Shown in pieces: positions 1-26,635 of a DNA stretch of 32,109 bases. Location: assembly GCA_051941275.1 (NCBI GenBank), contig JAVEBF010000085.1:1-32109 (forward strand). The letters are read 5' to 3'. Each line of letters opens with the position of its first letter. The stretch's first letter is position 1. Below the pieces are notes generated by a model. The model saw only the letters and a list, made by a program, of their open reading frames with translations. It did no database searches and was not told the origin of the DNA. Both the position numbers and the translations under genes were made by a program. Source of the DNA: Dirinaria sp. TL-2023a (lineage: Eukaryota).

Positions 1-195
1 CTATCGAAGACTCTCAGAGCGCTCTTTCCCAAACGGGAATGCTTGAAGCAGACAGTCTCCAATAAAACGTAAGTGCCATCTGCAAGTTGAAGGCGAAAGG
101 AAAGTGCGAATGTACGGTAACGTCAGTCATAGATCAAGTCCACGCTTTCGAAATCCAGTGTCTAATATAATATCTGGATCTTTGACGGCATCAAG

Positions 196-1249: not shown

Positions 1250-1536
1250 TTTCTGATCGGTCCTCGATGCCGGGAGTAGCGCTTTAGCGAAACGGAAGAG
1301 GTGTTCGTGATGGACTAATTAGGCATATTTTTGGTGACCGCGGGGGCAAAAATCCGACTGTGCATCTGCGAGTGATAGCTCAGAGGACCTCCATCCCTAG
1401 GTAGCTAAGCTGAGCGGTATACATACATCATAAAGAGGGTATGAACAACAAAAGAGGATCTGCGCAACAGAGATAGATCTGATCCAGATTATCGGGGTCA
1501 AAAATCATTGAACCTCACTGAGCAGAGAATCGAGCG

Positions 1537-1679
1537 CCAGCATCTAGTTCCAGTATCTAGTCTCAGCGTACGAGTCCGACATACAAGTCCAGAACACAAC
1601 TCCAGCACAAAACCCCATCACACAGTTCCGTCACACAAGTACAGCATACAAGTCCAGCATATGAGCCCAGCTACAGACG
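1537..1679. repeat. Degenerate 13-bp tandem minisatellite, ~11 copies, consensus CCAGCATACAAGT
   Basis: Units read directly: ccagcatctagtt, ccagtatctagtc, tcagcgtacgagt, ccgacatacaagt, ccagaacacaact, ccagcacaaaacc, ccatcacacagtt, ccgtcacacaagt, acagcatacaagt, ccagcatatgagc, ccagctacagacg. Confidence 0.85.
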
Positions 1680-3955: not shown

Positions 3956-4429
3956 GATAGCTCGATTCCTCAAACCAGGTGTTGTAGGATAAGTAAAGAT
4001 GAAAGGTGAATGAGTGCCGATATTGTGCCTGAGATACCGGAAAAGTCGCGACTACCTTCGCAATCATGGGGTATGCAGGAGTTGTGAGGATTGTTTTGAA
4101 AATTTCGTAATGTTGAGAAAAGCTTCTCGGTGGTAGCGTTGCTCGATCAGGCTAGGCTCAAGTGGCGCATAGAAAGTCTAGGAAGTATCTGGCTTGTCGA
4201 GGTAAAGATATCATCCGCCGTGATAACCTGGTGAAGCCATATCGGATGTTTGATTGCGTATCAGTACCTGCAAGATAAAATTTCACGAGATCAAAACCTT
4301 AGCCAAGTACTCGTACATTCATACCGCAATGTCGCTTAGAATTCATGGATCTCTGCCCCCAAAATGAGGGAGGAGCTCCTCCTCTGCAGTAAGATTTTGA
4401 AAAAAAAAAAAAAGCAAAAATTCAGGGGG

Positions 4430-7000
4430 TCGTACCTTACCAAGCTCCTTCTGACCTTCCGAGCGAGAGGCGCTGGGCTCAAGCTTTATGGATTTGGGTC
4501 TTGTTGGTTTGTTGACCTGGTTTCAATCATCAAAGCGCCGACCACTTCGCCCGTTTGCTGGAACATCATAATGACTTTTATATTGCAGGTCCAATGATAA
4601 GACACCCTTCCATAAATCAACGATCGTATCAAATCTAATACGCTTCATGAATAGTTTGTTGGATAATTCGTATGTTTCGTTAAAGCCTCCTGTGAACTTG
4701 TGCGTGCTGGATGATTGCGAAAGCAATGAGCGCGCGTAGCAAGGACTTTCAGGCTCACGCCACGCCGCGGAATAGGGTTCTGAATACTCACAGTATATGT
4801 AATTGGCCGACGGAAGAACCTCATCAAACTATTTGAAAAGGACAAGTCTCGAATCTGATGGCGTTAGTAAAGATATGTCGCGCTCTTAGCTTTCTATTAG
4901 AGAATCCTTTTCAACGGTTTTTTTTCACATGAAGGTAAGGTAGCTCTCCAAAAAGAAAACACAAAAGAGCTCAAAGCTGAGGGGACAACGGGGTATTAGT
5001 ATAGCACGTGTCTTGAGATGCTTCAGGGTCAGCTCTGAACGTTCATGATCCTCATCTCCCGCGCTGAGTGAGGTATAACAAGTACCTATATGGGTTTTCT
5101 GTCCTTTGAAAGCAACACAACGGTACAATAGTTTTGAGCCGAGGATACCTAACTCAATCTGCAAGGCACTGAGGTATACCAGCCAGGAACATCCAACTTC
5201 AGACCTAATGTGACTAGTGTGAGAAGAGGATCATCTACTGTTGTAATCCTAGGAATTGGCAATTCACCCAATAATGATGCATCGGGAGGTTGCAGCAGTG
5301 GCGTTGCCCTCTTACTGCGAAAGTTTCCTTCGTGAGTAGATGCAAGCCGCAGAAGCAACGCTAAGAAATCATGATGGAAGTCGGGGAAAATATCCTCCAT
5401 CTCGGCTTTAGAGGCTACAAATTTTAGTTCTTCCAAATCAGGTTCGGACGACGATTTTTGGGAAACGCACTCATGATACGGATGAATAGCATGTAATCCG
5501 TCATTTTTTGAATGGCTGCAAGCTCGAGAGGCACAAATCCTGCGAATATCGCCCACCGCCTAACACGTCTGTAGCTGTTGAGGGCCCTGACTGCAACAAT
5601 GATGCTGGAACTAGGAACCACGTTGAGCTAAATACCTCGGGCTATTTCGAAGTATAGACATATATACCAGGGATTTGGATTTGAAATATCATCATCACGG
5701 CCGCTATCAGTTCCGAACCATTGATGGCTTTCAATTTGGCGGCACTATTACATTGTGAGAAAACTAGCGTAGAGTAATCGTTGTCATATTGTCGATTCGA
5801 CGAACTTGTTTCCATCTCAAATAGAGAATGTCTACTTCTGTTGTCAGCAGTTCCCCGTGCTGAACCACTGCATACAGGTCCCGATCCTGTTTGTGGGCGG
5901 GGAGTTGAGGAAATAGTTCGGTGATTCTTTTTGGATCAGTCTGCTCTAACGGCCTAGCGAGATCAAAAAGAGTGTGCACGAGCGCGAAGTCAGCTGCGAG
6001 AGCATTGGGACAGATATGGACGGATGGAGGCCTATATCGAAGTTTCAATGCTGCCGGATTCTCAGGTCCTGAGTCCCTCACATGGAATTTGGTATTTCTG
6101 ATGCAGTAGAAACGCCGTTCACGCTCTGTACTATTGGACCCCTGTTGCCAACGACGACGGGAAGATAATTTTCTGGATGAAGACTACGGAGACCTAAGAT
6201 AAAGCTTATTAGAGCTAGTACAGAAATTTTTCTCTAGGCACAGTCATGTCATGGTAAGCAGCCAGAGGGTTGTTGCTATGTTCAGGAACAACAGACAATG
6301 TGGAATAGGAAGTGAATTCTGGTGGATGCGTACAATAGTCTTGCTCGTCTGCGCAAATATAGTCTGTACTGGGTGCCATTGTGGTATTGCGTATCTCACT
6401 ATCCACAATCGTCCACCCCATCGCGTGATTGATATTGTGCTATTAATGCCGACTTAAAGGGAAATAAACCCCATGTGAAGCAAAAGAAGATACTTTGCAA
6501 TATCGTGTTCAGCTGGCAAGATTGTAGAACAAAATTGTGATTTCAGAAATACGCAAGAAGATAGTGTAGAGATGGTAGGTGCGCTCAGAGTCGTGCTTTC
6601 CTCCCCATAGTGAGTGGCCGGCGCAAATGACTTACTGAAAGCCGCCTTCATGGTCTCCAATTTCCCATCTGTCAGAAATCATAAGTACCTAGCTTTCAGG
6701 CGCAAAAGAGTCCCAAGCTATTCTCGATCGCCCCCAAGTCTGACATAGCAAGCTTAGAATATGGTGGAAAAATGGCCGACAAGCCATGCAGATTCAAATA
6801 ATTGTACTTCATTGATCCGTGTGCAATGGCAAGGAACTTGACCTCCTTGATTTCCAGATCTCAAGCTTTGCTGCTAAGATTGATCGCCGTGTAATCCTCC
6901 TTCTTTTCACATATTTCTATTAGTGCAAAACTGAGAAATTCGTCGATTTCATCCTGTGAGATTTACTTTGATCTTGGTTTCTCGAAGCTCGGCGTATTTT
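4430..7000 (-). pseudogene. Large fragmented gene relic, unidentified
   Basis: Chain of adjacent or overlapping minus-strand ORF pieces (5764-6081, 5424-5621, 5149-5556, 4925-5164, 4645-4845, 4523-4726) with protein-like sequence that switches frame (e.g. ...IMSAFPKNRR / PDLEELKFVASK...), plus intron-like signals. Boundaries are approximate. Confidence 0.35.
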
Positions 7001-7309
7001 GAGAGTGGTTCAAACTATGAGGTCTATGCGTTAGCCTTATTTGTTGATTACCTGAGTAGAACACCGTTTAATAACAAGCATTAATGGCAATTTCACGAGC
7101 TCCGAGGTTCAGCATAAAGCTTCATTCTTGTACGACTTAAATCAGCTCTATCCGTGTAGTAGCCGTAAGTTAGCAAATCCTTCATTCAAAAGCAAGGGAA
7201 AGAATAGACTTTTTTCAAGTGAACTCAAAACCAACCGCGGTATTAATGTCGTACCTCACATAGAAGCCCAACTCGATCTCGTCAATCCGTTCCATTTTGG
7301 CTCTTCGAG

Positions 7310-7750
7310 CTACGCCAAACACATGACTGCAGATGCCGTTGTAATAGCCATCATATACGCAAAGCCTACAAAGAGTACTAGAAGGCTTTCCACTAGTGTT
7401 CTTCCCGTTCCCATCACGCGATTTGAGCTCACAACATCCTTTCCACCCTTAGTTTCCACCGTTTCATGACGGCCAGCAGCGTATTGCAACCCCAGCCAAG
7501 CCGCCGCAAAGGTCAACTTCGGAACATCAGCGTTAGCCATGCCGATGTAGCCTTTTTTGGATTTGGCTTTTTTCGCAAATGTTATACATACGACATTGCA
7601 CATTCAACTCCTTGAATCGTGTCATCTGACCCGAGCAACTGCAGCAGATTCCGTAACACTATCTCTCAGTCGTTCGAATCCATCTCGGCGATCCAAAAGC
7701 GAGTCTGTATCCAATCGTAGACAACGTGCAATTCTCCAGAAAAGGAATGC
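7310..7750 (-). pseudogene. Possible relic of a small membrane-protein gene
   Basis: One frame with internal TGA stops, a GTATGT...GCTAAC...AAG intron-like segment and hydrophobic stretches (LTFAAAWLGL, LLVLFVGFAYMMAITT). Confidence 0.3.
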
Positions 7751-10700
7751 TTGACGCTGACCACAGATATATTTAGGTCTTAGTGAAATGCATGGTAGCT
7801 GGCGATGCGTCGTATCCGTTGAGCCTTGCGATAGGGCATGATTTTATAGCAAGCATTGAACCAAGCTTATGCTCTTGCCAAAGTCCGCTATACTGGGAGA
7901 TTTCCCCAGGCTGCGCGTTCCAGAAGTATGCAGTAGCCATCACTCAACAGTGAGTGCCAGGGGCGCGAATTTGGTTACTTCCAATGGCTTTAGCTCTCGA
8001 TTCATGTCTTAACCCGTGGTTGATTCCAGATTGCCCTGGCCTCTGCGCTTCGGTACCATGCATTCCCAGGTGATCTGCATCGATACCTTGCGCAGCCGTG
8101 AATTCGAATAGCAACCTGGAAAGATTTGATTTCGTTTTCAAGGCAAAATTGTAAAGTCGGGATTGTGGCCTTTGGCCGTCGGCTTTTAGGTGACATGGTA
8201 CATACTGAGTACCTAATGAAGTACACGGTACGTACACATACAACAAGAATAAAAGCATCAAGGAAGGAAATTCTATATTCGCAGAGGGTATGAATACGGG
8301 CAGCGAAGGACGTAGCTAGCTTTGGGGAAAGTTTTTAAATGCTAGAGCCTGCAGTCACACATTTCCGCCTCGTCCTGGCATGTAAGTACGTTAAGAGCGA
8401 TTACTGTTGCCGTATTGGCATCTTACATGGTGTTCGGAAGACACTGAGATCCCACAGACCCTTCTCGACGCATTGAGTACTAAGTTTAACGAGCACTTCG
8501 TAGCATGTATGGGGAGCCTGGTTGCATTCTGAGACATCATCCGTTGCTCCAATAAACCATTTTGAAAGCATACTTCTCCCGTACCTACCCAACCCAGATA
8601 TCCAGCCATATAAGTTGAGGAAGCGCTCGCGCGGTCATGATCAGGCCTGCACCATAGCATTTCACTTTTGAAGTTCAGAATATGTGTCGGAACATGACTT
8701 TTACTATCTGGCTGGCACGAGCAGCGCGAGTATGTGCTGGCGGTGCGAGGCGGCTCTTCGAATGGTCATTGGGGCGACTTCCACCCTGGCAAGGGTTTTT
8801 AGCGTGATCCCACATACTACTCCGTACACGTAATGATCATTTTTTGTTCGAATAATTCAATGGATTGCAACAAAAAAAAAAGGATTTTCTGGCAATAGGA
8901 GGAAAAGCTACCTTATGGCAGAGATTTCTCAGGTAAGTGCAAGCGGTGAACCTAGCGGCTTGAGAGGTCGGGCCGAACCCTGACTGAGCCCTGATACCTT
9001 ACCGTACCTTTTCTAGAAGCCGCACAGATGCAGCATGCCTACTTGTACGCTATAGGGTTCTGATTCGATTGTGACCTCCACAATTGACTAGTGACACTGA
9101 CTACTGCGCCTGGTTTCTTTGGAATATGTAAAGTTGGATTCGCTTTGGCGGCACAAAGACCAACAGGTACCCTCAGCAATGAATGAAGCGGTCTGAACCA
9201 CATTTGCCTATACTCTGTCATTGAACTAGGATTGCTCATAGAGACACAAGGGGCATTTGCCATAGGTAGAGCCTCCTTCACGGATCCTTCAGCTGAGCGC
9301 GTGCGAATTACCCCCCTCTAAGGTCCCTAATGCCCAGACAAGGATAGGCTCCTCAATTCCATGCCCGCTGGAACTTTGAAAATCCAGGCGCGGTGTAACT
9401 GTGCGTCAGCACCATATCTGCGCCAGCTCCCTGCCAGCTTCGCTTATAAAATGCTTTCTCCGTCTGAGTGTGCAGTACCGTAAAATAATAGATATCCGTA
9501 TGGTTCGAATAATTCCTAATGATTCCTAAGCGAGGGCATGATCCCCGCTAGACTCAGGATTGGATACGTCGATCCGTTTTGTGTGATCCTATACATTCTG
9601 AATAACCACATGGTTGGATTTAGATGACCATCGTTATTGTTGAGCTGTTAACTCTCTAAATTCTCTAAATTGGCGATATTTGATGCTACCGAGCTTAGCA
9701 TATACTCCGAGCAGGGCGTGAAATGTCCTCCATCTGGTTCCCTACTATCAGTGCAGCACGCAAACAGGCAGCTGCAAATACCGAGTACGCTGCACGGCAC
9801 ACCCCGCCGACAAATTTCACATGTTGTATCGAGCAAACCTTGCCCAACGCCTCTAATACATAGAAATTCGCAAGAAATGTCGACCAGAAGGTCCCGGATA
9901 GACGTCTTCTCAGAAATATGCTTTCTCGTTAGCATGCATCTTGAGTGACAGCCTCTTGGATGCTAGGCTAACTTGTTTCCTCCTCATCAGTGGCGTCGTT
10001 CCGACAGTCTGAGGACCTTTTAGTACGTCTGCGCATAAAATCAAAGATTGTTCTTGCTGATTGGTGTTACATGATAATCATGGAATATCATCGCATCTTC
10101 TGAACAAGCACTCATATCCGCACATAACCCTAATGAGAAGGTCATGTAGAGAGATATGTGTCAATTATATAAGGAATGTAGGTGCCGCCTGGATGGTGCC
10201 CTCATCATCCATGAGAAAATGAAATAACTGCAGAACCTCACCTAACACCATATAATAACAAGTCCTTGATCTGCCGGGTTTTTCTAAACCTTAAGCCCAA
10301 GGCTGGATATCGATGGAATGGAGAATAGCAATACACTTTCCCCTCGCTTTAAAACAATCGCCTTAAATAAGAGCGTCTCTTAGGACCTTCTTTGTCGATA
10401 AACGGTGGTTGATACACTGCAGATGCAGCAGCATGGCCGACATTTGGAGTAATCGATGATTCATTGCTTTCACTTCTAATTTCATCTTCACAAAGTATCT
10501 TGGGAGGGAAGAGTAGCTGAGGACTTTTTCCCAGTTTAATGACGAACAAGAAGCGTGCTGGGGGGTAGAAGAGATTCTCACTGAAGCTGATGATCTTGGC
10601 AAGTAATAGTTTCTTTCAAAGGCCCGAAGATGAGGACACCGTTGATTGTGCTTTCTATTGAATCGATGGTGATTGCCCGACTGAAGGTGGTAATTCCCCC

Positions 10701-11307
10701 ATAGCTCGCTTTTGAATAATGCATTCTACAGGATAAGGATTATCATTCTTGTTATGCAGCTCTTTAGAGGCTCCCTCATCACCTAAAATGATCTTCGTAG
10801 TACCACACGCCTTTATTTAGTTGCCAGGTACATCTCTAACATGGCTGGCTGCGAAAAAAGTGAGCATTGCTGAAACACCTTCTTAAAAAATAATATACTT
10901 ACAATGTAAAGATTTCGACACGGCAAATGATCACCGCTATCCATCCCCTGAGGCTGCTGGCTGCCCGTAGGCATCGGCTAGGGATCTTCGTAAGAATGCA
11001 GATATCCACAAAATCTTCAACTTCTACGTACCCTGTGCCCCTTGCTATAAGTGTAGCATCTGGGTGATTTATCAGCGATTTTTCAAAACTGACGTTTGAG
11101 TCTTCGTTAAAAACGAATCTTTAAAAAAAATTTTCATAAAAATCGATCTTTTAACTGAAATTTTATTTTTCGAAAATTGAGTGTTTTTCGAGAGCTTTGC
11201 ATTTATCTCTCAGCGACGTTGATAAATCGTTTTTTACGATTTTAATAATTTCGATCATATTAGTAAACCATTCGTTAAAAACGATGATATTTTAATGATT
11301 AACTCAT

Positions 11308-11934
11308 TCATGAATTTTTTGATTTTTTTCTGCTCGACGTACAATGATCTGCGATCATGACGTCGCAAATCAAACAATCGTGATAGTTTTTGAAAACATT
11401 TCTAAAAAAAAATAAAAACGAATGTGATGAAGAGTTTAAATAATTACGAAAAATTTTGATTGAGTTGACTTCACGGACGAAATATGTCGAGAGAAAAATT
11501 GAAATTTTCATATTCTTCGATTTAATTATTCACGTGTTTCTGCGTTAAGTTACTTTCAACGCTAATTTTACGTTTTCGCTTTTCTCGAGCAAGTACAGCC
11601 GAGTTCTTTTCTCAGAAATCGTCGCTCTTCGAGAAGAATTAAGCTTTCGATGGTTTATTCGTACTTTTGGAGATCTTGGCTGTCTAAAGTCTCTTCAAAC
11701 GATACGTGTAATAAAAAAATTCTCCCTGATTCGTCCGTTCATGCCCAAAATCTCGTATCTATGTCTCAAGTCAGCGAATTCTTCATACGACGAGCTGTCT
11801 CGATCTCGTTCGAGCTTCAGAACAGTACGAACTATCGATCCTGAGCGTAGCGTAGAGATGTAGATCAGATCTTTCGGATCGATCATAAACAAATCGTCGA
11901 ACGATGACGATCGTCCAAGACAATAACAATACAT
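11308..11934 (-). pseudogene. Degenerate ~210-codon ORF, unidentified
   Basis: ORFs 11695-11934 and 11308-11511 are in the same frame (starts 423 nt apart) and are separated by only three stops (TGA, TAA, TGA). A CLICD...HC motif lies near the end. Confidence 0.45.
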
Positions 11935-12014
11935 ATCTTTAATTGTGAAATAAAATGATGAGATTCGTTTCGCTGACTTTTAATTCGAATCTATTTTTCC
12001 CATCATTATTCAGA

Positions 12015-12695
12015 ATCTGTGAGTTAGCTTCGATCTCATCCTTTCTCTTTTTCATCTCTCGATATTTCTTGAACGACGAAAGAGAAAAAAGAGAGAAAGA
12101 TCGAGATCGATTTTCTTGAGTTAAACTCTAATTCGAACGGGAAACTCTCGTCTCTCTTTTTATAAAAGTTGCATCGTCTTGAACTCTCATCTCTTCACTT
12201 ACAATTCTCGCATATTGAATCGAAATGATCGAGAGCGCTTTTGTATTGAGAAAAAGAGTGCGACGACTGATGACGAGAATTCTGACAGACCGTACAGTCT
12301 GAGCCGCTCAGCCGACCTCGGCTCTGTATGAGGAGAGCGTTGATATACGAGTGGCGATGGCTGAGAACTTGATCTGTTGGGATCGTCTCGAAATCATACT
12401 CTACTGCTCGTCCTGACATCACCAAAACGGCTCTGAACTGCCCGCTGTGAGCGAACGCGGTCAGTCGGTTCTCACCCACTGCTAAAAATCCTATGCCTGG
12501 TTTGGAATTCTTAACCGTTGTAGTGACTGACAGGGTGGTAAAGGGCGCGGGGCCCGGCCGATCAATTCAGCTTCGAATACTCGAATGTGAAACGTGGAAG
12601 AAGTATACTGACGTCTTCGAATACTACTCGCTGGCTGAGTAGCTCTTCAAAGTTTGGATCTATCGGTCTGATAAGCTTCGAGGAGACAGACATCA
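12015..12695 (-). pseudogene. DUF3716-like Cys-rich protein, inactivated
   Basis: SYINALLIQSRG...CTVC...SFSQY...DHFDSICENCK*RD...RC matches the recalled DUF3716 pattern (SYINALLIQSRG, CxxC, PFPxC, GHFGGxCGNCKWRD..RC), with the Trp codon read as TGA at 12195-12197. The 5' end is uncertain. Confidence 0.7.
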
Positions 12696-12840
12696 TTTGA
12701 ACCCTTTAAGTATGCGACATTGGCGATGTTCTGATATTTTTTATTGTGAAATTCTTTTTATCTGAAAAGTCAAGCGAACATTGAAAAAATAAAAAAGAGT
12801 CTGAAAATGATCATCTCGAAAACTATTCAGTAATTTTCTC

Positions 12841-13900
12841 TCATAGTGACGCTCTATTTTCTGCCTGTAGGATAGCGTCAGCTACGATAGGTTGGGGTGT
12901 CATATCAGAACTTACATCGGCGAGCCTGATCCCTCAGGTTAGAAGATTGACGTCGAGGATTAAAAAGCGGACAAATTCTGTACACGAAGTCACAATCTCA
13001 TCTGTGTTAATGTCAAATTTTGCTCGAAGCCGTGCTTGCTCTATCGAAAGTATAGTTGCATTTGAATCAACTCAGATGTAATGCTGAAATTCGTCTAAAT
13101 GAAGCACAATCTCGATCATGAATCGAGCTTCAATGTCAGACGCGATGTAGAGAGTATTGTAAATTGTGGCGGCATGAAGAATCAGCACGATACGTCGATC
13201 GAAAACTTCGAATCTCGTTGCGATCTAGATTAGCTATTCGTCGAACGCGTCGCTGCTGAATGTCATCGAGTGATGATGCGTCGGTCGAATTCAGTTGTGC
13301 TTGCATTCAGTCGTCTTTCAAGCTGATTGCGCTGAGCGTAATTCAAATAGTGATTCCGCGGAGATTGCATTTCGTGTGCGTGTCGTTGTAGTCACTGACG
13401 TGAGCGAAAGACCTCGTAATGGTCAGTCGTGGTTCTAGGAGCGTTGGATGAGGTCCTGAGAATCTAGAGTTGTTCGGCAGCAGAGGCATTGCTCATTGAG
13501 CGTCAACTGCATGGATGCAATCGAGATGGAACAGGTGACTGCAGATTGTGGGACGCACAACGCCGACGTCGAGACTCTGAATAGATCTCGGAGTCTGTCG
13601 TTCATTCATAATATTATTCGAAAAGAAAAAGAAAAAAAAATCGATCAGAAACGCATGTACGAAATTCCTGCGCTGAATCGCCGCTCAAGCGATGGCGAGA
13701 GACGGACCATTCTGCTCTATCTCAGAAGTAGTTTTTCTTCTGTCGCTTGAGACTTCTTTTTTGATCTGCAGTCGATGTCTTGGACTCCTTGGCTGATTTT
13801 AGAATGCCACGATTAGTAAGAACGAAGTAGAACGTCGATGACGCGGACAGCTGTGTACTTTGTAGTACTCTTAAACTTGTGATTGGTTCTTTTGACTCAG
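12841..13900 (-). pseudogene. RING-H2 zinc-finger (E3 ligase-like) gene relic
   Basis: Minus strand at ~13545-13474 reads CSHLFHLDCIHA, then after a frameshift LTLNEQCLCCRTTL, i.e. the C-x-H-x-F-H-x2-C-I...C-P-x-C-R half of a RING-H2. A stop-interrupted frame continues to ~12841. Confidence 0.6.
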
Positions 13901-13979
13901 TACGGAGAGTCACAATATACTGGGCGGAATCCAGTTAGCATTTGCAGTCGATGTTGAGCCTGTAGCCTATGTTCAGCAT

Positions 13980-15150
13980 CGAATTCACGTAAGCTGGGGA
14001 TGATTCAATCACGATGATAATTCTGTCTCGGGAAATACATCATGATCGTCATTTGAGTGTTGATTCTAAATCTTGAGACTCCCTCAAGCGCTCATTCTCC
14101 AATTTCCAATACTAATATAACTCTGGGAAGGGTGATATATTTTGATCGATTCGCTAGAGATTTGCTCTCCATGATGCGTAGAATGAACCCGGAGAGTGTC
14201 ACTGGCGGACGCCTCAGTGTTGCATGATCGACTAGTATGTTGGAAATAATGAGGCACTTTTCTGTCATGTGAGACGACTTTTTCGATAAGTTTTGCGAAT
14301 AGTAAGAGGTCGGGCACTGATCATAGGTGTCTAGTATCTTTTCTCAGGTAGTTTCATAGAGGATCTCGTAATTATTCTCGTCGCGCTGCAAGCGCTTTTG
14401 ATAGAGTCTCGTGTCAAGCATGACATCGCCGATGTGCACAGCTATTGAAAATAAACTCAGACGAATGAACTGATTATCGAGTTTCTCAATCCATCATTCT
14501 TTATTGCTTATTGAGCTGATGGGAAATAAGAGAGGAGTGATGGTTCGAATGATTCCACAGATCACGAGCAACAATGGAGAACAGATTTTCAATATCTCTA
14601 AGGTAGGTGAAATTTCTTAGATAAGATATCCATGAAAAACTGCTGAGCTGAAGGAATAGAGGTGCGAAAGCATCACATTTGATGCACTAAAACATAGCGA
14701 CCCCATCCAAAATGTTCAAGGAGCTTTTCCTCCTGATAACCAAATTTCCTGCTCAATGGTACTAAACAGTAAAGACAAATTAGAAGATTCGATTGCCTTC
14801 GTTCGTCCATCATACCACGAGATAGAAATTCCTCGTCCTGCATGACGGGAAATTATTAAAGACGTAGACTGAGAGCGAGTTCTCTTCAGCGGCAGAGATG
14901 GACTCGCGCGTTTACAAAAGGGGCAGCCACCCACAAAGGGCAGAGCTTCTCATGCTGTGCCAACGCGTTACCTTTATCCCAATTATTCCGTCGTTGATCT
15001 TTCATTCGATTCTGGATTTGAGGTCTGTAGATTCGAGAAATGGACACAATCTGGGACTTGTGGCCGTTCGTTGCCATGGTCTCTTTTTCCTGAAAGCGTC
15101 AGCGCGAGTGGGAATGAGCTTGAAAATGGTTGTGAAGGCTAGCTGATGAC
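13980..15150 (-). pseudogene. Degenerate ORF, unidentified
   Basis: Long protein-like frames interrupted mostly by TGA or TAA (e.g. ...HA*HETLSKALAARRE*LRDPL*NYLRKDTRHL*SVPDLLLFAKLIEK...). The true frame is ambiguous. Confidence 0.35.
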
Positions 15151-15499
15151 GACACGTACATAAGTTCGAACGTATTTACTCTCTATTTTCTCTGAATTTT
15201 CTTTTTCATCCTTGACTTTTGAATCTTTGTTTTTTCTTCGCCTTTTTCTTCTTCTTGGTCTCAGAATTCGTTTGTTACAGATCTTTCGTGCTTGAGTCGA
15301 AAGTATCGATTCAATTTGAGTTTAAAAGAATAAGCAAACATTATAAAGTCAATTATAAATGCATTTAAGCTCATCTCATCGATTTATGCCTCCGATCCGT
15401 GCCAATCAATATTCTTTGAGAGATTCAAAGAATTCGTTTTTGACATATGAGTGCAAGATAAACTTGATCTCTAATAGCGTTTGGCTTTTAATCGCCGCA

Positions 15500-16240
15500 A
15501 GAGATCCAATTAACTTCCAAAGAAGCGACTAGTCGTAGTGGAGATCACATATGAGAAGAAAATAAGTGAAAGTACGTGAAGGTTCTTTCTCCTGTAACGC
15601 GCCCAAGAAGACCCAATGCTAGGTTCAACTCATGGATCATCTTTTGGGAACTTTTCAAACAGAGAAGCAAATTCTCGTCTAGCGGCAAAATAAGGGAGAC
15701 CTAAACTCCTATTTCGTAAGAGTGGAGTTCTGGTTGAAACAAATGAATATTTTGATACATCAAATATCTGTTAAGAATCAAGATTAGATTGAGCTGAAAA
15801 ATTGCTGTGGCTCAATGAATTTGCATTGCGGAGTAATTCTTCGTAAGCCTTGCGTATGTGTCAGATATAGCCTGCAAGACCGATCGAAACCGGATTTAGA
15901 CTGCTCTCTGCCCTTTCTAGCTTGTCTGTTGTCGAAGCAGAGTTCAGCTCCAAAGAAAAGATCAATGTCTGACCTATATAGAGAACGATTTCTTCCGACG
16001 ACATGCTCATCAGAGCATGGTACAAAAACAACTAATTTGTTGAACCCATAGTACTGTGCAGCGAGGAATTAGATCTTGCGTCACTGAACTCTTAGCAATT
16101 TTATCAGAGGCCGAGTAACTCCAGATTACGATATGTGTCACCCTGACTGACTCTGCATCAAACCATCCCTTTGCGATGGGACACCAAAACTCTTTCCCTG
16201 GACCTTTTTATCTTCCTGAGTTTAAAGTAAAGCATTTCTC
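15500..16240 (-). pseudogene. Fungal HNH-endonuclease-like (HNH_2 type) gene relic
   Basis: Minus strand ~16192-16127 reads EFWCPIAKGWFDAESVRVTHIV, followed after a frameshift by MGSTN*LFLYH. This fits the recalled WCPI...AAHIVP...NGLxLH pattern of fungal HNH proteins. Confidence 0.45.
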
Positions 16241-16247
16241 ATCTGGG

Positions 16248-16272
16248 TCAGCACGTTTGACAAACGTGCTGA
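16248..16272. repeat. Perfect palindrome, 12-bp arms with 1-nt spacer
   Basis: TCAGCACGTTTG-A-CAAACGTGCTGA. Confidence 0.9.
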
Positions 16273-16650
16273 TGATATATATTCCAGCATCAGCGCTAGT
16301 TTAATGATTAAGTTTGTTTTCTTCGCCGCGGAGAACAATATGAGAATAAAATGACGTTCCGTAAAGGGATATATTATTTATATCGGCTGACCGAGCAGTG
16401 CTAATCAGAAAGCTATCAGTTGCTGGATGTATGGGCTATAAAGTCCAAAATGTATGAGCTACTTCAAGTAACTTAAATGCGAAAGATCAAAGTTTGAAGG
16501 GAAATTCATAAGAAAAAGAGTAATTTCTTTATCAAATAATATATAAATTATTGCGTTGTGTTGAGATCAGTCTTGATGCAAAAATAAAGTTGTTGACTAT
16601 AAGTAAAGAGTAGAAAGAAATTTCATTCGTATTTCGTTTTACGCTACTTC

Positions 16651-16817
16651 TGTCATGCGATGGGGAGAAGGGAGGGGTCCCCGGTCCCCGAGCGCATACC
16701 AAGTCCTAAGATATATAAGTGATAATAGTAGTAATTATTCCAGTTAGAATAATTACTGTAGTCTCTTGATCCAGGTAAAATAGCAAGTACTATTACCCTT
16801 GACTAGCCGGTTTTACA
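16651..16817. mobile_element. Solo-LTR-like short insertion
   Basis: Begins TGTCA and ends TTACA, with an internal TATATAA box and an 11-bp hairpin (AGTAATTATTC-cagtta-GAATAATTACT). It retains G and C runs, unlike its flanks. No matching 5-bp TSD. Confidence 0.4.
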
Positions 16818-17023
16818 CATAATTTTTGTTTTGTTCATTACTCAAATCGAAATCGTGATCTCGTGAATCGTCATGTCGATCGATGACATTAAAATGATTT
16901 GATGAGTTCAGCGTCATGGTAAGTAGATTTTCATTACTCGTCTACCTCTCACCTTATGTCATGATGAATTACTATCAAAAAGCAAAAGAGAAGAGTCAAC
17001 ATTGCGAGCATTTATATGAGCTG

Positions 17024-17130
17024 AAAATAGATTCTGAGCACGCCTCGATTCGAACTCACGCCACGGAGAAACTCCGGGCGCAATGCTGTTAGACAGCAAC
17101 AACCTTGCATTTTGCACCAAATGGGATCCC
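17024..17130 (-). other. tRNA-like / Pol III-type structured element (pseudo-tRNA or SINE head)
   Basis: A-box-like TGGTGCAA (17119-17112), B-box-like GAGTTCGAATC (17057-17047), two hairpins between them and a downstream TTTT. No proper acceptor or T stem. Confidence 0.3.
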
Positions 17131-17299
17131 TCATTCAGAATGGTATTATTGTTATATATATTAACAAAATTTGTTCGACAGAGAAAGTCTTGACTTTATT
17201 TTGATTTGCTGAGCTAGCGGGGGAAGAAAGCTGTGTGTTTAACTTTTTTAGAGATGAACGAATAAAACCACGACCGTTCGAACCATCAGCTGGAATATC

Positions 17300-19900
17300 T
17301 GGTGATACGCTAGATAGCACAACAAGTAGATCAACTCGCTGAATGTTTGGTGCGCCAATTCGCTATTTGTCAGTCAAAATTCGCTTAAATGGAAATTTTT
17401 TGGAACTGTTTGACGGCTGGTTCGAAACACCTAACAGCGTGGTTAGTCATGCTATGAGAGATACGTAATATAAGCTGCTCGAATCTGATGAAAGAATTGT
17501 TTTCTTTCGACCTAAGTTGCGAGAACTTAAAATTAAGTGACGACTTTCGTTTTGAAATATCATCTTTGCTGATTTTATGCGAGCATATTTATGTTCAGAA
17601 TGAATCCCATAGAGACATTTCCATGGATTCGACAGTGCGCTTGGTCTGATACGAAGATATTAGTGCTTGGTAGGATTCAAATCTGGAGACTTCGCATTGA
17701 TGCTCAGATCCCTTAAAGTTGATACTGTACTTGGCTAGCTGATGTAGTGGTTGAAAAACTCTTCGAGTTGACATGTTATATCGCCGAGAGAGAGGCTTGC
17801 AAGTTTATTGTAATGTTTGGTGGAGAACATTGAACATTCGTGTTGAAAGTTCTCTACTGCAGCATGGCTACGACCCTGAAATTTGCTAATGAATCCAATG
17901 AATATTGCAGAACTCATTCATAACGCGCTCTGTATCTTATGTCGATGCCCATTATGAGTTCAACGATGTCCATAGTCTGGATCGACTTGTGAGAAGCCTT
18001 CTAGTCTCGTTGAAAAGATAGTCCACAACGAAGCGAACATTATGTGGAAGCTGAGAAATGCGGCTTGGAAGACTTAAAAATTGATCGTGTCCAGATTGCA
18101 GAGGGATGCCAAATGGTGCCCTCATCTTCCGAGAATTTTGTGCTCTGCGATATAGACTAGATCTCTGCTTCGCCGAGGAAGTGTCTCAATTTCTCAGTCC
18201 AAGGTCAATCTCTTTCTGCCGGAGCAAGAAGGAAGCTTTATAAATAAGGTCGATGCAAGAAAGATCTTGAAAGTGCTCTCAGCCGTGAGCAGTTTGCTGC
18301 TTGTAGTCCTTGTTCCCATGATTATATAGAAAAATTATTTCATGTCAAGAAATGCTGATGGAGATTTCTGGCAGGAAAATGATGGATTTCTTATTCCAGA
18401 AGTGATACTAAGGTCAGGTGAGCGTTAGCGAGACATGTCTTGTAAATATCTTGTGCAGAGACCACAAGTAACCTCGTGATCATAGAAATGAGTAAGAAAG
18501 AGTCACTTCTGGTCTCCTCATAAAGATGCGACCTTCCATCCATTCCCTGAAAAAAGGGGAAGAAATACGACAAGTACCGCATAAGAGTCAGCTGGGCTCC
18601 GTACTCATCCTGAGAATCATAGCAGTATCTCTGATCAAGTGATGCAGCTCTCGCCAGCGTCGATGCTGTCTATGAACCAACAACGAAAGCAAAAAGTAAA
18701 TCAATCTCGCTATCGACGATGAGAAAAGAAGTATTTTGGACTCGCTTATACAGTTTCTATCGTATCCTAGATATGAATGAAGTGGTGGTATCTGTTCAAG
18801 CCGATATAGTCTTCAGGAACATCTGCGGACTCAAGAAATTAATGACATCGTTGTAATAGAGTATATCTTGCCGATCATCTTTAAATTATATATAAAAATT
18901 TCTCCACATGTCTTGAACTAGCAAAGTGTTTTCGTACTTCGCTCCTTGGTCGAGATCAAGACTTCAGTAGCCAGCGACTTTGCTGCCCTTTTCTTACGAT
19001 AAGTTTCATCGATTCAAGATGGTCGTCGTGAGAAGTAACGAATAGCAAGTTTCGGCGATTTGTTTTCTTATTGCAGTGACTTTCTGAATTCATCCTTTCC
19101 TCTAATTCTTGCGTTATGATTGTAAATGCTGCTTCGCATTGCTCTTCAAAGTCTGCGATATAGTTCTTCGAATCGATGAGATTCTATAAACTCAATCTGT
19201 ATCTTCTGCTTATAGAGTTTTTTTCGATATCTCCTGATGCGAGTGCCTCCCAAAACCAATCTCCAAGCAAGAGCCTCTTAAATCGCCCTCTGAGACTTGA
19301 CGAAGCTTGAGATCAGCGCCTTGGGTCCAGAAAGCTTTGTACTTTAGCATACAACCGTTCACCGCTTTAAATTTGAATGAGGATGTGGAAGTGAATCAGC
19401 ACGGCATCAAATTTTCTTTGCTGGCTAGTAAATTATGTCTCTCGGGCGAACCTCGAAGCCTCAACAGTAGTATATCATAGATATTGGAAATGTAAGGAAG
19501 TCTGTTAGACTGTCAAATTAAGTCATCCACAACTTGGTTCCTCTGGTTCGTTTGTAAGGCATGATGGTAAATCATCCTTGATGAATTCTTTTGTTCTGCT
19601 ACTCCGTGTTGTGATGTTTGTCACCACACAGGCCGCGTCCATGGTTGGATTTGCTGGCATGGCTTTTACCACACATTTAAAGCTATGAGTTGTTGTGCAG
19701 CAGCCCCTTGCACTTAACACAAATTTTGCATGTTCCATTTGAGATCGGCTCTGGCTCTCTTGCTGGCGTTGTTAGCGACCTCTAGAGCACTATCCTCCTC
19801 TTCGGTATTTGAACTGGAATAGACATTTCACGGTGGAACAATCGCGATTGAGCTGAGGACTAGCAGAAGAGCGGATGCTTGAGACAAAGACCGTTATATC
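17300..19900 (-). pseudogene. Heavily degraded, probably multi-exon gene relic(s), unidentified
   Basis: Minus-strand branch/acceptor signals (CTAACAG at ~19505; GCTAAC..CCAG at ~19775) and protein-like fragments (LLLGDWFWEALASGDIEK; NYIADFEEQCEAAFTIITQELEE) broken by stops and frameshifts. Confidence 0.3.
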
Positions 19901-20200
19901 TATCAGTTTCATCGAGAAGCCATTTGTCCTTTGTTCGACTCTTTTAGGCGTATTTGATCGAGTAGAAGATTGAAAAAAATCGAGCATTTGTGAGAAATTT
20001 ATAGTTTACGAATTAAACGAGAACACGATATGTAAATGTGTGAGACGAGTTTTGACGTAAGAGAATGATTTACGTATAGACTTTCGCGGAAAAACTGAGT
20101 ACAATTTTCGAGACTTGAGATGGTTCTCAGCGTTGAAATGTGGTGGCAGCTTTTGGTGTGATTGATGAGTTGGTTCGATATGACCTCGTTTGATAGTCTT

Positions 20201-20860
20201 CTAACTGCACACCTTGGCGAATTCCTGTACGAGCTCCTGTGTGGCGTGAAAATGTTAGCCATTCGCCCCCGGCAGTATCAGAATTAGTTTACCTCAAAAT
20301 CACAGTCATCCATACTACCGAATACGAGATCTTTTCCCAGCTTCTTCATGGTCACTCTCGGACTCGATATGCCAAAGTCAACTCTAGCCAAGAAAATAGG
20401 ATCATCTCGGACGTCAGTAGCATTCAGTATAGCTCTGAAATTGAGGGAATCGATGCGTCCACTGCGCCTTGCTCCCTCAGCTTGCGAGAACGTTACAGGC
20501 TAACCTGTTGCGCAGTAGCTGCAATGTCCACAACCGGTTTTTGGGACTGATGCCTCATCACCGAAGTGTTTCGCGAGGGCATGGCTCAAGCAACTATTCG
20601 CTGTGATCACATTGATGACTTTCTGAATTTTAGCCATGTCATCTTCCTCTTGCTTCTTGAATTTGGTATTTATTAAAGTAGCCACTTTGTCTTTGTATCT
20701 TTCGCTCTTCTCGAAATTCTTCAATAGGCGAAAGCGATGTATAACACCGCTTGGTTGTAGCTCGATGGTTCCCGAGTCATTCCAATCTTTCAACTTTCTA
20801 ATGGCATCTGATCGGTCGAAGAATCGGAACCTGCGAAACCTCCCTCTTTTGCAACCAACG
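20201..20860 (-). pseudogene. 3' fragment of a fungal RecQ-family helicase (Zn-binding and C-terminal region)
   Basis: DRSDAIRKLKDWNDSGTIELQPSG...CLSHALAKHFGD...CGHCSYCATG*PVTF...RDDPIFLARVDFGISSPRVT...VFGSMDDCDFE, then a GTAAAC...GCTAAC...CAG intron and ELVQEFAKVCS*. There is an in-frame TAG at 20500-20502, and the helicase core is absent upstream. Confidence 0.75.
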
Positions 20861-21888: not shown

Positions 21889-24800
21889 TTATTTGGCACC
21901 TGCGGCCTTCAGTCTCTTAACCACAGCTAGATGACCTTCTCTTGCTGCCCTTTGAAGTGCTGTTCCGCCACCAAGAAAACGAGTAGAAACAGCATTGACA
22001 TCAATCTTTTCTTGTAGCAGTCTCTCCACCACCGCTAGATGACCTTCTTCTGCTGCTAGTTGAAGTGCTGTTCCGCAACAATCAAACCTAGCAGAAACAG
22101 CATTGACATCAGCCTTCTCCTGAAGCAGTCTCTCCACTACAGCTAGATGACCTCCCTGTGCTGCTAATTGAAGTGCTGTTCTGCCACCTTGAGGATAAGG
22201 AACAGCATTCACGTCAACCTTCTCTTGTAGCAGTCTCTCCACCACAGCTAGATGACCTTCTTTTGCTGCCATTTGAAGTGCTGTTCCGCAACCATCAAAA
22301 GTAGCAGAAACAGCATTGACATCAGCCTTCTCTTGAAGCAGTCTCTCCATCACGGCTAGATGACCTTCTTTTGCTGCTGAGCGAAGTGGCGTGATGCTAC
22401 CATAAGAAGCATTCACGTGAACCTTCTCTTGTAGCAGCCTCTCCACCACCGCTAGATGGCCTTGTTCTGCTGCTGCTTGTAGAGCAAAATCCAGCATAAC
22501 TTGCGAAATATCTTTCGAGTCTAGACAGGCCTCTAGTAACTGTAAGTATCCATTTGCTGCTGCGCCTCCGACCAACGTTTGAAGGTTCTCTTCGGAAAGC
22601 CTTCTACTGGAACCTATAATCAGCTGCGCTAACGAACAGTGATTAAAATCTACTATCCATTTCAGAATCGTAATAGAGCGCTTCTCCAAGTCCTCAGATG
22701 TCCAGGGAATGTTAATTAGGCTGTCTTGTCGATCTATATCCTTAATCAGCTTGCACCAGAGTCTCCACAGCTTCTCAGAACCTGGCATGATTCTTTGCTT
22801 TGTATGTTCGAGCCAGAATTGACGTGAATAAGATAAAAATGAGTACTGTCTCAGCACGTTATATTGGCGACTAGCTTCAGTATCCCCTATTGCTTCCTCC
22901 AATAGACGTTTTACTGGCTGATCGGACTTATTTCGCCGTCTTAATAAAGTCAGAGCAATTTGGTTGGCGGATCTTCCAGTTGGTAGGCTATTCTTTACGA
23001 CCATAGATGGTATGCCAGTAGCTTTGATATCCATTCCGGGTGTACGCGCCACTTGAGTATTGAAGACGGGAAAGCTAAGGTATGTAACACAGATCGCACC
23101 TGCGTCTGCGTCGGCCTTTTCTAAATTGATATCATGACTCCGAGATTTGACGGTGGCTCCCGAACATAGATATTGTTTAACACTACCATGCGTGAAATGT
23201 ATTGTTTCGTGTTCCTCATCAACGAAGACTAGATTGCCGCAACATGCTACCGCTTTCTTCATGTCATTGACAAAACAACTAGCATTCCAGGTATCTTGTA
23301 AAGGCTCGATTTCAATTGCTTCTCGAAGCTCTTCGATTGTAAGAGGACGTTTCGCAACAGCCGCCCAGCGAAAAATTTGATTTCCAACCTCAATATCATC
23401 AGCTGGGGTAAACTTAGAGAGAATCCTCTCATATGTTTCTGGTAGATCTCGTGGAAGGTGCCTCAAGGCGGCAAGGATCTGACTGTCTGAATTCTTCTCG
23501 CGTAATGTTTGGAGTTGGAGTTTGACCCATAAGAACCTTTCTGCGTAAGTTGAATCCTGTTATTCCATTTTTGGGGCTTCATACATGCCGTGAGCTTCCT
23601 TCTCAAGATGATCTGTAATCGACAATATCAGAGTCGGATCGCTGATTTGCAATTCTGGTGAATCCCCTTCTAGCCACTCGCCGAGTGTGGTGTTGACAAA
23701 TTGGCGAATATCAACAGCAATTCGTGATTGACTTTCGGCAGTATCTAAGCTGACATGCTGCTGGGGTCGGAATTGGAGGGCAAGCCAACTTGGTACGTTT
23801 GGACGACTGGACCAAAATAGTTTAATATGCAGAAGGGGGGAACTTAAGAGGCTATAGAGCGCCTCAGCGACCTCCTTAATTTGAGCTTCGCTACATTCGT
23901 CTAGCCCGTCCAGTACGATAAAGTATTGGTGAGCGTTATTCAAACTAGCTTCGAGAAATTTTATGATAGCTGTTCCGTCTGCATTTTCGAGGTCGAACTC
24001 GCGAAAGGCATCTGCAGGTAAATCATTCACAAATTGTCGAGCAATAGTCCCAATAATGGTCGTTGCTTTGAGAGATTCCTGGTCATCAAAACGACAGAAG
24101 AAGAAGCTCGTCACATTCTTTGGCGATACAGATTCCATTATACTGGCAGTCACACAAGCGCTTAAGGTATTTTAGCAAGTTTTGCGGATAGGGATTCGGG
24201 TAAATGAACCTTATGATCGATTTCCCTGAACCCACTGTTTTCCAATGTAAGCATTGCGAATGCAACAGGGACTCTTATGAGCCTACATTTGCCAGAGCAC
24301 CAAAGGACTTTCGGATCTTCTTCTTTCCATGTCTTGAACGCTAGGTCCTCCAGTACCCAATTCGACGTACCAGGTACGCACTCCTTACGAATCTGCTTGT
24401 AAGTCCTCTGATAATTGTAGGTAGAGAGACTCTTCAAGACTTGTCGTTTCCTTTTCTCCAATCTCCGACGATGGATTTCTAATCGCGAATCGTTCACTTT
24501 CTTGTTATCCCGATAGAAATTGTCCATCCATTTGGCTATGTTTTTCCGATGACCATCAGCCTCCAAACGTTCTCTAGCTTGGAGCTCGTTCTCCTGCTTT
24601 TTGGCTTGCTTTGATGCCAGAGATGCTTCATCGCGAACTTCTTGGCCTAATGCTGCAATTTCCCTTTCATGAGGCCCAAACTCGGTCTTGAAGGAGCTCA
24701 GTAACATCTTAGGCAGCTTCCTATATGCTAGAAATATATCAATTTACGAACTGGTAGAAGAGTATTCAAAAATGAAAAGGCGGGTATAATACCTGACTCT

Positions 24801-25349
24801 CGAAGAAACTGCGTTGAGTGCTTATAAAGCTGAATAATAGCGGCGTAATAATCACACAACGCTTTTCGTAATCTTGTCGAAGGATACAAGAAGCTCAGCT
24901 CCTGTATCTGGGGACACTGCCTTCCTAAGGTCATGAGCAAAGTGGACAGTTGGTCAAAATAGGACGAAAAGTTGTTTGCAGCCTACAACAGTCAGATACA
25001 GTACTCGGGCCAGGGGACAAAGTATCACCAGTAGAGTCAGCTTTACACCTCCCCAGACCAGAGCCGCAAATTCAGGATGAGAGCTGACAAATGTATCCAC
25101 AACTTTGGAGAATTGCTGTATTGATTCAAGGAAAGTTATGAGCCTCGGACCCATACATTGACGGCGATTTCTACTGCAATCTCTGTCAATGAGGGTGGTG
25201 AAATTGATGGCAGCCGCAGTATCTGGCAACCCTTGATTGTGAAGTTGATTTCTATCTTCATCAGAAAGAATCTTCTCGTAGTCGGCTAGTGCTTGAGCCA
25301 GTTTGGTTTCGGGATCCAGCGGCGCAGTGTTAGCGCCCACTAAAGCCAT
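21889..25349 (-). CDS. Fungal NLR-like protein: N-terminal helical domain + NACHT NTPase + ankyrin repeats, ~1066 aa, 6 exons
   Basis: Exons 25349-25029, 24982-24793, 24727-24287, 24234-24210, 24160-23585 and 23536-21889 have GT-AG ends and sum to 3201 nt, in frame. Motifs: Walker A GKLGSGKS, FFFCRFDD, Walker B IVLDGLDEC, GMFLWVKLQL, LPRDLPETYERIL, FTHGSVKQYL and C-terminal ankyrins. Confidence 0.92.
21900..22490 (-). repeat. Six highly similar ankyrin repeat units (96-108 bp) within the NLR
   Basis: CTAGATG(A/G)CC recurs at ~21927, 22035, 22143, 22248, 22356 and 22452. The protein unit is TALQxAAxEGHLAVVERLLQEKxDVNAV. Confidence 0.9.
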
Positions 25350-26635
25350 AACGATGGTGAATGTGCCAATAATACTAGTGGAGTGGGCAAATACTGCTTA
25401 ATAAAATTCATATATACAAGCAACAAATCTGACTTTGTCGCTGTAGAGGGGCTTTTACAGTCAAATTTTGCTGTGTTCAAAGCTCAAAGTCAAGGCTGAG
25501 ATGAATCAGCCAGGGAGCTGTGATGACTTGGGTGCCTGGACGAGTATCAGCGAGTCAGCCCAAGGCCGAGTACTGTTCGCTTGTCGACCAATCAGAAGAG
25601 ATGCTACACCCGCTCCAGTATGCTGTAGTGGCACGAGTGTACCTAAGGTAACCCTGGCCTTCTCCGTCAACCATTCCAGACGCCTGCATAAGGAATCCAT
25701 CAACAGCGACTCACAATAGACAGCCACTCTACACGAAATGAATTGTATCTTGCTTATGACGCCCTCCTAGAAGTAGAATCCCGTTACCTTATTGAGTATA
25801 TGTCTCTTGATTGGCCAGGAAGAACCATGCTGTGGACATTTGAAAAGGCTCACAAGGTACTCGCGCTGGCACACAATCATCGCCGAGGAAATTAAACCCA
25901 TCAGTCTGAAAGCCTGGATATATATAAGTATGTTCAGGCTATTAAGCCTCGTAATCTACGTTCCAAGCGATGAACCACGATGATGAGAGCGCGGCGGCAT
26001 TTTGGACGCTCTCATCGGGCACAAGTAGTATAGGTGCAAGTATCGTAAACGTTGCTTGCATTGTTCAAGGGGCTCAGATTTCGCCGCCGCAAGATCTGTG
26101 ACTTCTACCAACTTGTGGTTATGAATTTGTTCAATAATCCTCTCAATTCCTGTTTTTGCCCTTTGCAGAGCCAAAATTTGTCGAGTCTTACTTTTCTCGA
26201 GATCGATAAGTGTGTCCCAAAGACGCGGAATGTGGCATGTGTGCAGGACAGACTACGTATGTATGTAGTCAATAGTGTGGCAATTTGCGTTGTACATGGT
26301 CCATGGCAGCATGATTGCTTGCAATACATGTAACCAGTATGTTACGAGACAGTATACAAAAGGCCATTAGAGCTGCCTAAATAATTAGCTTTGGCACCGT
26401 GGCTTGGCTCGATGACGACGGTGCAGATCGAGCGTACTTCGACGAGCAATGTAGCTCTACCAGCACACTGGGCCAAGGCTTATTCATTAAGATAGGTCAT
26501 GGAGTGTCGGAATGGATTTGTATGGTGGTAGATATGTAGTGAACTGTCTCGTTTCATTTACCTCCAGTGGTGATCGAACCGATTTCCATACCCGTCAGCT
26601 CGGTTCCTCATTGCTTGCGCATTATTTGTAAGGTC

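Follow-up and report, generated by a model that had tools for sequence, protein, structure and literature searches.

The window analysed here is the whole 32,109-nucleotide stretch of contig JAVEBF010000085.1 (assembly GCA_051941275.1) from Dirinaria sp. TL-2023a, and within it lies an island, at 11.06-20.1 kb, in which the dinucleotides CC and GG are strongly depleted. The island has no long open reading frames (ORFs) and holds only pseudogene relics, among them one assigned to the DUF3716 family, and a 3' fragment of a RecQ-family helicase gene sits at its right edge (Table 1). As a whole it has the look of a collection of dead gene pieces; duplicated or transposed segments could give such a picture, which is however no proof of them. 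Very probably, the island records a real, localized and context-specific hypermutation, by which cytosines standing before a pyrimidine were changed to thymine.

Table 1. Features of the CC/GG-depleted island and of its right edge, in window coordinates
Feature	Coordinates	Strand	Basis and remarks
Main hypermutated block	11064..12290	both	Sharp left edge, last GG at 11063
DUF3716-family pseudogene relic (predicted)	12039..12566	-	Pfam PF12511, E 7.8e-4 / 2.9e-3; 154 phmmer relatives
Spared segment between mutated blocks	12291..12600		CC+GG 14 and 22 per 150 nt, GC 0.53-0.54
Second hypermutated block	12601..13350		Composition
Weaker patchy continuation	13351..20110		Composition, 150-nt bins
Strong patches in the continuation	15151-15450, 16500-16662, 16801-16950, 19051-19233, 19947-20100		CC/GG depletion
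3' fragment of RecQ-family helicase gene, last ~170-180 codons	20201..20820	-	PF16124 (RecQ_Zn_bind)

The depletion is evident from the letters themselves, since positions 11101-11580 hold a single CC (at 11268) and a single GG (at 11475) together with 29 CG, 34 TC, 37 GA, 11 TCA and 17 TGA, which reproduces exactly a hand count made in a first-pass annotation of this DNA (one CC, one GG and about 29 CG). In 500-nt windows, the observed/expected ratio of CC+GG is 0.28-0.62 over 11001-14500 and 0.65-0.90 up to about 20.5 kb, and the ratios for CG, TC+GA and TA in the island are 1.2-2.35, 1.4-1.75 and about 0.5, respectively. The loss goes beyond base composition, as a comparison with 2000 mononucleotide shuffles shows: CC+GG number 2 in 11101-11550 against 16.3 +/- 3.5 in shuffles (lowest shuffle 5), 20 against 70.5 in 11101-12300 (z -7.2), 24 against 62.9 in 12601-13350 (z -6.2) and 494 against 741 over 11075-20110 (z -11.2). 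Across 415 flank windows of 450 nt the CC+GG count is never below 28 (median 45), and when the stretches of the window that lack CC and GG are ranked by length, the first 12 (109-207 nt) fall within the island, the longest elsewhere being 71 nt. Both strands are affected in 11101-12300, with 13 CC and 7 GG, and 123 TC and 110 GA. The GC content of the blocks is 0.25-0.46. As a negative control we used 80 related lichen-type loci (800,064 nt, 55 of them at least 4 kb), a set that is uninformative on repeats in relatives; no 450-nt window of those 55 loci carries the signature (minimum CC+GG observed/expected 0.52), and none has a GC below 0.35. The clustering of TCGA was tried as a marker of the pattern and rejected as unspecific, with 3 of 7 window matches inside the island and 83 matches in the related loci.

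In bins of 150 nt, depleted and normal segments are seen to alternate along the island. Through the main block the successive CC+GG counts are 0, 1, 1, 4, 6, 3, 3 and 1, with CC/GG-free gaps at 11063-11268, 11268-11475 and 12140-12290 and a CpC loss of about 94% in 11101-11550. The borders at ~11063 and ~12300 are sharp, the latter lying inside a gene, and segments of normal composition, 150-450 nt long, stand between the patches (for example 12291-12600 and 14701-15150). The patches listed in the first-pass annotation are present (12601-13350, 15151-15450, 16501-16650, 16801-16950 and 19951-20100); inside its patch at 16.4-17.0 kb, the segment 16651-16800 is normal with 22 CC+GG.

A few of these segments have peculiarities of their own. 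The patch 19951-20100, just downstream of the stop of the RecQ fragment, is strongly strand-asymmetric (GA 22, TC 3, CC 0, GG 1), in contrast to the symmetric main blocks. At 16500-16800, a 162-nt AT-rich and TA-rich stretch devoid of CC and GG adjoins a short GC-rich island in which GGTCCCC occurs twice (16676-16690), and this TA richness resembles the canonical repeat-induced point mutation (RIP) product more than the rest of the island does. At 12020-12120, a TC-rich pyrimidine run is followed by a GA-rich purine run that is approximately its inverted complement, which makes the block 11551-12300 an outlier even at the purine/pyrimidine level.

The trinucleotides tell which cytosine was lost. 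Relative to the flanks, every NCC and CCN trinucleotide is reduced, to a frequency ratio of 0.35-0.58; those that a change at the first C would yield are enriched, with ATC, GTC, CTC and TTC at 1.22-1.42 (CTC 1.29) and TCA, TCT and TCG at 1.40-1.91 (TCG 1.91), and the second-C products CTA, CTG and CTT are not (0.72-0.91). The mutated C is therefore the one that precedes another C. Since transitions preserve the purine/pyrimidine skeleton, the share of C among pyrimidines can be compared before a pyrimidine (Y) and before a purine (R) with no assumption on the ancestral GC. Before Y, C/(C+T) is 0.11 in 11101-11550 and 0.28, 0.31, 0.23 and 0.20 in the other blocks (0.11-0.28 within the main block and 0.31 in 12601-13350), against 0.36-0.64 in 139 flank windows and 0.48 in the spared 12291-12600. 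Before R, it is 0.46-0.55 in the blocks (0.48-0.55 in the main block, 0.51 in 12601-13350) against 0.42-0.59 in the same flank windows. Similarly, in pyrimidine tracts of at least 4 nt the internal share of C is 0.22-0.30 in the blocks versus 0.43-0.45 in the flanks, and the last base is C in 0.55-0.63 versus 0.50-0.51 of cases.

We then quantified the context in a forward simulation that mutated both strands at four context rates, taking the window flanks or seven related-lichen loci as two independent proxies of the ancestor, and which recovers the dinucleotide spectrum observed in the main blocks. For the main blocks the fitted probability of mutation is 0.74-0.76 at CpC, 0.22-0.24 at CpT, 0.08-0.14 at CpA and 0 at CpG, and for 11101-11550 it rises to 0.94, 0.65-0.66, 0.17-0.22 and 0-0.01. 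Over 13351-20110 the CpC value is 0.35-0.39, with 0.76-0.78 in the small patches, and CpG stays at or below 0.09. Four free rates reduce the loss from 0.385 (no mutation) to 0.017 and a CpC-only model to 0.040, while the CpA-only (0.324), uniform (0.124) and CpG-only models fit poorly; as controls, 12301-12600 fits zero mutation and the left flank 0.04-0.09 in every context. The abundance of TCGA is a by-product and not a motif of its own, because YCGR sites form a similar share of CG sites in the blocks (0.34) and in the flanks (0.27), while their kinds shift towards TCGA: CCGG, CCGA, TCGG and TCGA number 0, 1, 4 and 37 in the blocks, and 27, 63, 74 and 117 in the flanks.

The direction of change was read from the DUF3716 relic, which, as judged from its homology, is a pseudogene of that family. 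Its match to PF12511 is weak (19.8 bits, under the gathering score of 22), and its phmmer relatives number 154 at E<=1e-3 and 28 at E<=1e-10. A word-based search for a close intact paralogue of the relic returned 1 match at 41% identity, and an exhaustive search none above ~45% over most of its length. The N-terminal half, above ~12300, has a normal composition, and the C-terminal half with the zinc motif is hypermutated. With tblastn, homologues match 12536-12144 in one frame, straight across the composition border at ~12300, therefore this border is mutational and lies inside a once continuous gene, rather than being an insertion junction; no frameshift was found in the alignments of the relic with its homologues. 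The family motif reads C-x2-C ... PF ... C ... G-x-C-x-N-C-K-W, of which the relic keeps Cys, Asn and Lys, with G, P and W replaced and the invariant Trp turned into a stop by TGG>TGA at 12195-12197. Codons for Gly, Pro and Trp contain GG or CC. We compared the relic with 79 homologues at the columns where their consensus residue reaches a frequency of 0.45 or more. Conserved Gly, Pro and Trp were retained in none of 9 such columns of 12161-12300, against 13 of 23 for other residues (Fisher p = 0.004) and against 14 of 15 conserved G/P/W columns in the RecQ fragment, which is mildly affected by mutation and served as the control (p = 8e-6).

Furthermore, 12 of the 19 differences in the mutated half are explained by C>T/G>A alone and only 1 by the reverse alone (binomial p = 0.003). 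By our own reading of the codon table, 13 are single changes, 7 of them at CpC (P>S twice, P>L, G>D twice, G>E and W>stop), 3 at CpT, 2 at CpA and 1 at CpG, and by strand they divide into 4 coding and 9 non-coding. Other kinds of difference are not raised (7 of 32 columns in the mutated half versus 12 of 44 in the normal half), so that the excess damage consists of transitions alone, which suits a burst of enzymatic activity better than slow decay. The changes G>D, G>E, P>S and TGG>TGA, which the first-pass annotation had deduced from the family consensus, are thus seen against real homologues. Its proposal that the pattern arose by C>T/G>A on both strands, and is not native composition, is upheld by the relic, the skeleton test and the simulation, and the same three lines of evidence give substance to the preference it suggested for CpC, possibly CpY, with CpC >> CpT > CpA and CpG close to zero.

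Several known signatures were compared with this pattern. TpA/ApT is 0.56-0.59, (CpA+TpG)/(ApC+GpT) is 0.98-1.29 and the composite RIP index is below 0, and TpA-based indices are indeed blind to the pattern, as had been anticipated. The earlier arguments that neither Neurospora-type CpA RIP nor methylation-deamination at CpG fits also withstand the counts: CpA is spared and TpA is not raised, and deamination of 5-methylcytosine at CpG is ruled out by the retention of CpG (fitted loss 0, observed/expected 1.2-2.35). The signature of ultraviolet light, which is C>T at the 3' C of TC or CC and depletes TC, was ruled out as well, TC+GA having an observed/expected ratio of 1.4-1.75 with no depletion of TC. 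The TpCpG hypermutation of basidiomycetes was rejected since TCG is at 1.91 times its flank frequency and is not depleted. On the other hand, the context of O6-alkylguanine damage (as in mutational signature SBS11), C>T at CpC/CpT, is matched; within the window, however, the change lacks the genome-wide spread that chemical damage should have.

As read from its sequence, the RecQ fragment at the right edge is interrupted in frame by a TAG (20500-20502) and contains a putative intron of 56 nt (20237-20292). RecQ homologues of 617-953 aa match it only by their C-terminal ~170 residues, mapped to 20811-20290, and it is 56-61% identical to Teloschistales proteins. It departs from the family consensus by a transition in 9 places, and by our reading each of these is a G>A of the coding strand. 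Related contigs hold 2-3 RecQ loci per assembly prefix, and no synteny with the 80 related loci was found beyond the fragment itself.

Within the island, the repeat search of the window and blastn detected repeats neither at its ends nor inside it; searches for tRNAs and for Rfam families were negative, and tandem repeats are only trivial. To its right lies an NLR-type gene (21889-25400, minus strand) with NACHT_N/DUF7708, NPHP3_N/NACHT, a GPI-inositol-deacylase-type winged helix and ankyrin repeats, the last comprising six tandem units of 105-108 nt, whose identity with the reference unit is 64-90%. The N-terminal domains of this gene lie in separate frames (introns or breaks), and its region 22001-22500 is low in CpG (observed/expected 0.32). 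Other genes on this side encode an acireductone dioxygenase, a protein with a fungal-rhodopsin domain and a HAD hydrolase; for the dioxygenase, the best match (99% identity) is a protein for which a Logan contig is the sole source, and counterparts in Letharia, Gyalolechia, Mycoblastus, Usnea, Psora and Lecanora share 77-82% of its residues. The window is nuclear DNA of a filamentous ascomycete, and these similarities, with that of the RecQ fragment, place the host among the lichen-forming Lecanoromycetes or close to them. The left flank (1-10700) has normal composition and eight ORFs of 120-422 aa, none of which gave a Pfam match; a protein-atlas search with one flank ORF returned no usable match.

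In our reading the island is dead DNA of a Lecanoromycete-like, lichen-forming ascomycete, made of gene fragments, and has very probably been struck by a localized, transition-only hypermutation acting on both strands. In this process C gives way to T where a pyrimidine follows, at CpC much more than at CpT, and C before G or A is left alone. Such a conversion makes CC and GG vanish and TC/GA, TT/AA and TCGA accumulate, while the density of CpG stays as it originally was. The most likely agent is a genome defence of RIP type, in which an enzyme with a DNA-methyltransferase fold, or a similar one, would act on duplicated DNA before meiosis and would favour C > T >> A, G at the +1 base, where canonical RIP favours A. 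That the hypermutation was RIP-like in this sense, repeat-triggered and with a CpY preference, we hold to be about as likely as not; the duplication that would have triggered it is entirely inferred, as are the acting enzyme and its timing. The first-pass annotation had put forward a repeat-directed mutator of this kind, with a variant of RID or of another DNA methyltransferase, or a deaminase, as candidates.

Several observations weigh against a repeat-triggered origin. No second copy of any island segment was found within the window by the repeat search or by blastn (word size 9), the only repeats being the ankyrin units of the NLR gene. A transition-blind purine/pyrimidine alphabet gave a best non-ankyrin match of 73.8 bits, compared with best matches of 61.9-91.7 bits in each of 5 block shuffles. 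A six-frame Pfam scan of 10.5-21 kb (stops as X) found only DUF3716 and RecQ_Zn_bind, and no transposon protein domain. Some of the patches measure no more than 110-160 nt and the intensity of mutation is graded, which is a poorer fit to classical RIP acting on a defined duplicate. Moreover, the polarity is known from one relic of ~45 codons, whose homologues are only 35-45% identical, and by our reading the few transition-type differences of the RecQ fragment lie mostly at CpG and CpT, not at CpC. Reports on other fungi point the same way: the published RIP of Lecanoromycetes looks canonical, with low-GC regions called by RIPper in Xanthoria (10.1101/2025.11.25.690456) and TE-derived sequence (from transposable elements) that peaks at ~16% GC in Cladonia rangiformis (PMC12542154), and a kingdom-wide k-mer survey concluded, according to its text, that RIP-like defences share the CpA preference (PMC12543289).

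Among the other explanations, the main rival is a local process not triggered by repeats, in which silent chromatin would accumulate unrepaired, context-biased lesions and the borders would be those of chromatin domains. The lesions could come from non-CpG cytosine methylation (DIM-2-like) followed by deamination, or from O6-alkylation of G after a purine, which mispairs with T, and C>T at CpC/CpT is described as the O6-methylguanine signature SBS11 (PMC12556801). Such a process would account for the graded intensity (fitted CpC values from 0.35 to 0.94), the shortness of the patches, the absence of a partner copy within the window and the strand-coordinated patch at 19951-20100. We nevertheless consider it rather unlikely, since the edges are very sharp at ~11063 and inside the gene at ~12300, near-saturated loss stands beside untouched DNA, with normal segments of 150-450 nt within the island, other substitution types are not in excess, and there is no known reason for chemical alkylation to stay within 1-kb blocks. 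If the island were simply old DNA without function that drifts neutrally, with CpY>TpY prevailing among the mutations of the whole genome and selection protecting the flanks, this would be compatible with an island that holds no long ORFs but pseudogene relics only, and with a whole window in which CC/GG are mildly low (0.85-0.91) and TC/GA high (1.17-1.18). It is improbable, as none of the 139 flank windows comes near the values of the blocks although many have no recognisable coding sequence, the signature is absent from the 55 related-fungal loci, and the two halves of a single pseudogene differ sharply, the mutated one having neither extra transversion-type differences nor frameshifts.

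The sharp left edge and the outlying base-level composition would also be explained if the blocks were insertions of an element intrinsically free of CC/GG and rich in TCGA. This is highly improbable, because the DUF3716 homology continues past the border, the codons that deviate are those that CC>TC / GG>GA should make of the G, P and W conserved in the family, two of the three blocks are no outliers among the flanks in purine/pyrimidine 4-mers (of 81 flank windows, 4 and 30 are at least as distant), and no terminal repeats are present. An artefact of sequencing or assembly, such as modified cytosines of one chromatin domain miscalled as T, we regard as equally hard to sustain, given that both strands are converted, that the loss is nearly complete (2 CC+GG in 450 nt against ~45 expected) with sharp edges, and that the cytosines of CpA are intact; we know of no sequencing-platform error of this form. 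As for an APOBEC-like enzyme that edits single-stranded DNA or the cDNA of a retroelement, CC is a target motif of APOBEC3G, yet the product spectrum contradicts it to the point that it is scarcely credible: it is the 5' C of CC that is lost, with NTC and TCN enriched and CTN not (0.72-0.91, except CTC at 1.29), both strands are altered, and the six-frame scan of 10.5-21 kb found no relic of a reverse transcriptase.

A localized hypermutation of RIP type thus stays as our working hypothesis, and a broader one can be put forward only tentatively. It is possible, though on balance we doubt it, that some lichen-forming ascomycetes have a genome-defence mutator whose specificity is unlike that of every described RIP system, one that erases C before pyrimidines (CpC > CpT) and never at CpG or CpA, and that might modify guanine after a purine rather than deaminate cytosine. 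The context being that of O6-alkylguanine, the primary lesion could sit on the G after a purine and not on the C. We found no CpC-dominant, repeat-associated hypermutation in a fungus in the literature searched, whose scope did not extend to subscription-only surveys such as Clutterbuck's. RIPCAL does no more than define an index for this context (PMC2621366).

RIP is the textbook genome defence of fungi, its chemistry is still unproven, and its context preference is used both for detection (TpA/ApT indices, RIPper, AT-rich k-mers) and for reasoning on the chemistry. If our reading is correct, surveys of RIP across fungi would under-count lineages of this kind, since the footprints keep a moderate GC and a low TpA, and scanners or k-mer surveys tuned to AT-rich products would overlook them. 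It would also imply that the reading of the +1 base by the enzyme can evolve radically, or that a different enzyme or lesion is at work, and would offer a natural system in which to ask whether the lesion sits on C or on G. For lichen genomics, the share of C before Y versus before R, or the ratio (CpC+GpG)/(TpC+GpA), provides a simple marker.

When compared with known systems, the island shares with APOBEC3G editing the CC dinucleotide and the C>T change, and differs from it in that APOBEC3G targets the 3' C of CC on one strand, whereas here the 5' C is lost on both. Features are also shared with RIP as found in Neurospora crassa and other Pezizomycotina, where it depends on RID/DIM-2: only C:G>T:A transitions occur, on both strands, in sharp-edged blocks of kilobase scale, genes are killed without frameshift, and the 3' neighbour of C sets the specificity. 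The specificity itself is different: the island shows CpC hit far more than CpT, no marked loss at CpA or CpG, no rise of TpA and negative indices, and in Neurospora CpC is the least favoured RIP context. The canonical preference of RIP is for CpA (PMC2621366; PMC12543289). The blocks also differ from the TE-derived sequence of Cladonia, their GC of 0.25-0.46 comparing with ~16% there (PMC12542154). The repeat hypermutation at CpG/TpCpG of Basidiomycota (Pucciniomycotina) resembles our case in being RIP-like, context-specific for C>T and aimed at a non-CpA target (PMC4014442), but it destroys CpG and TCG, whereas in the island TCG is 1.9-fold up and the observed/expected ratio of CpG reaches 2.1-2.35. 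Signature SBS11, due to O6-methylguanine mispairing as after temozolomide, has the same context, C>T at CpC/CpT, that is, G>A after a purine (PMC12556801); it reflects genome-wide chemical damage in treated human tumours, in contrast to the sharp-bordered and near-saturated blocks found here in a fungal germ line. What is new, most likely, is the block-wise and saturating hypermutation that favours CpC, seen at one locus and probably RIP-like in other respects.

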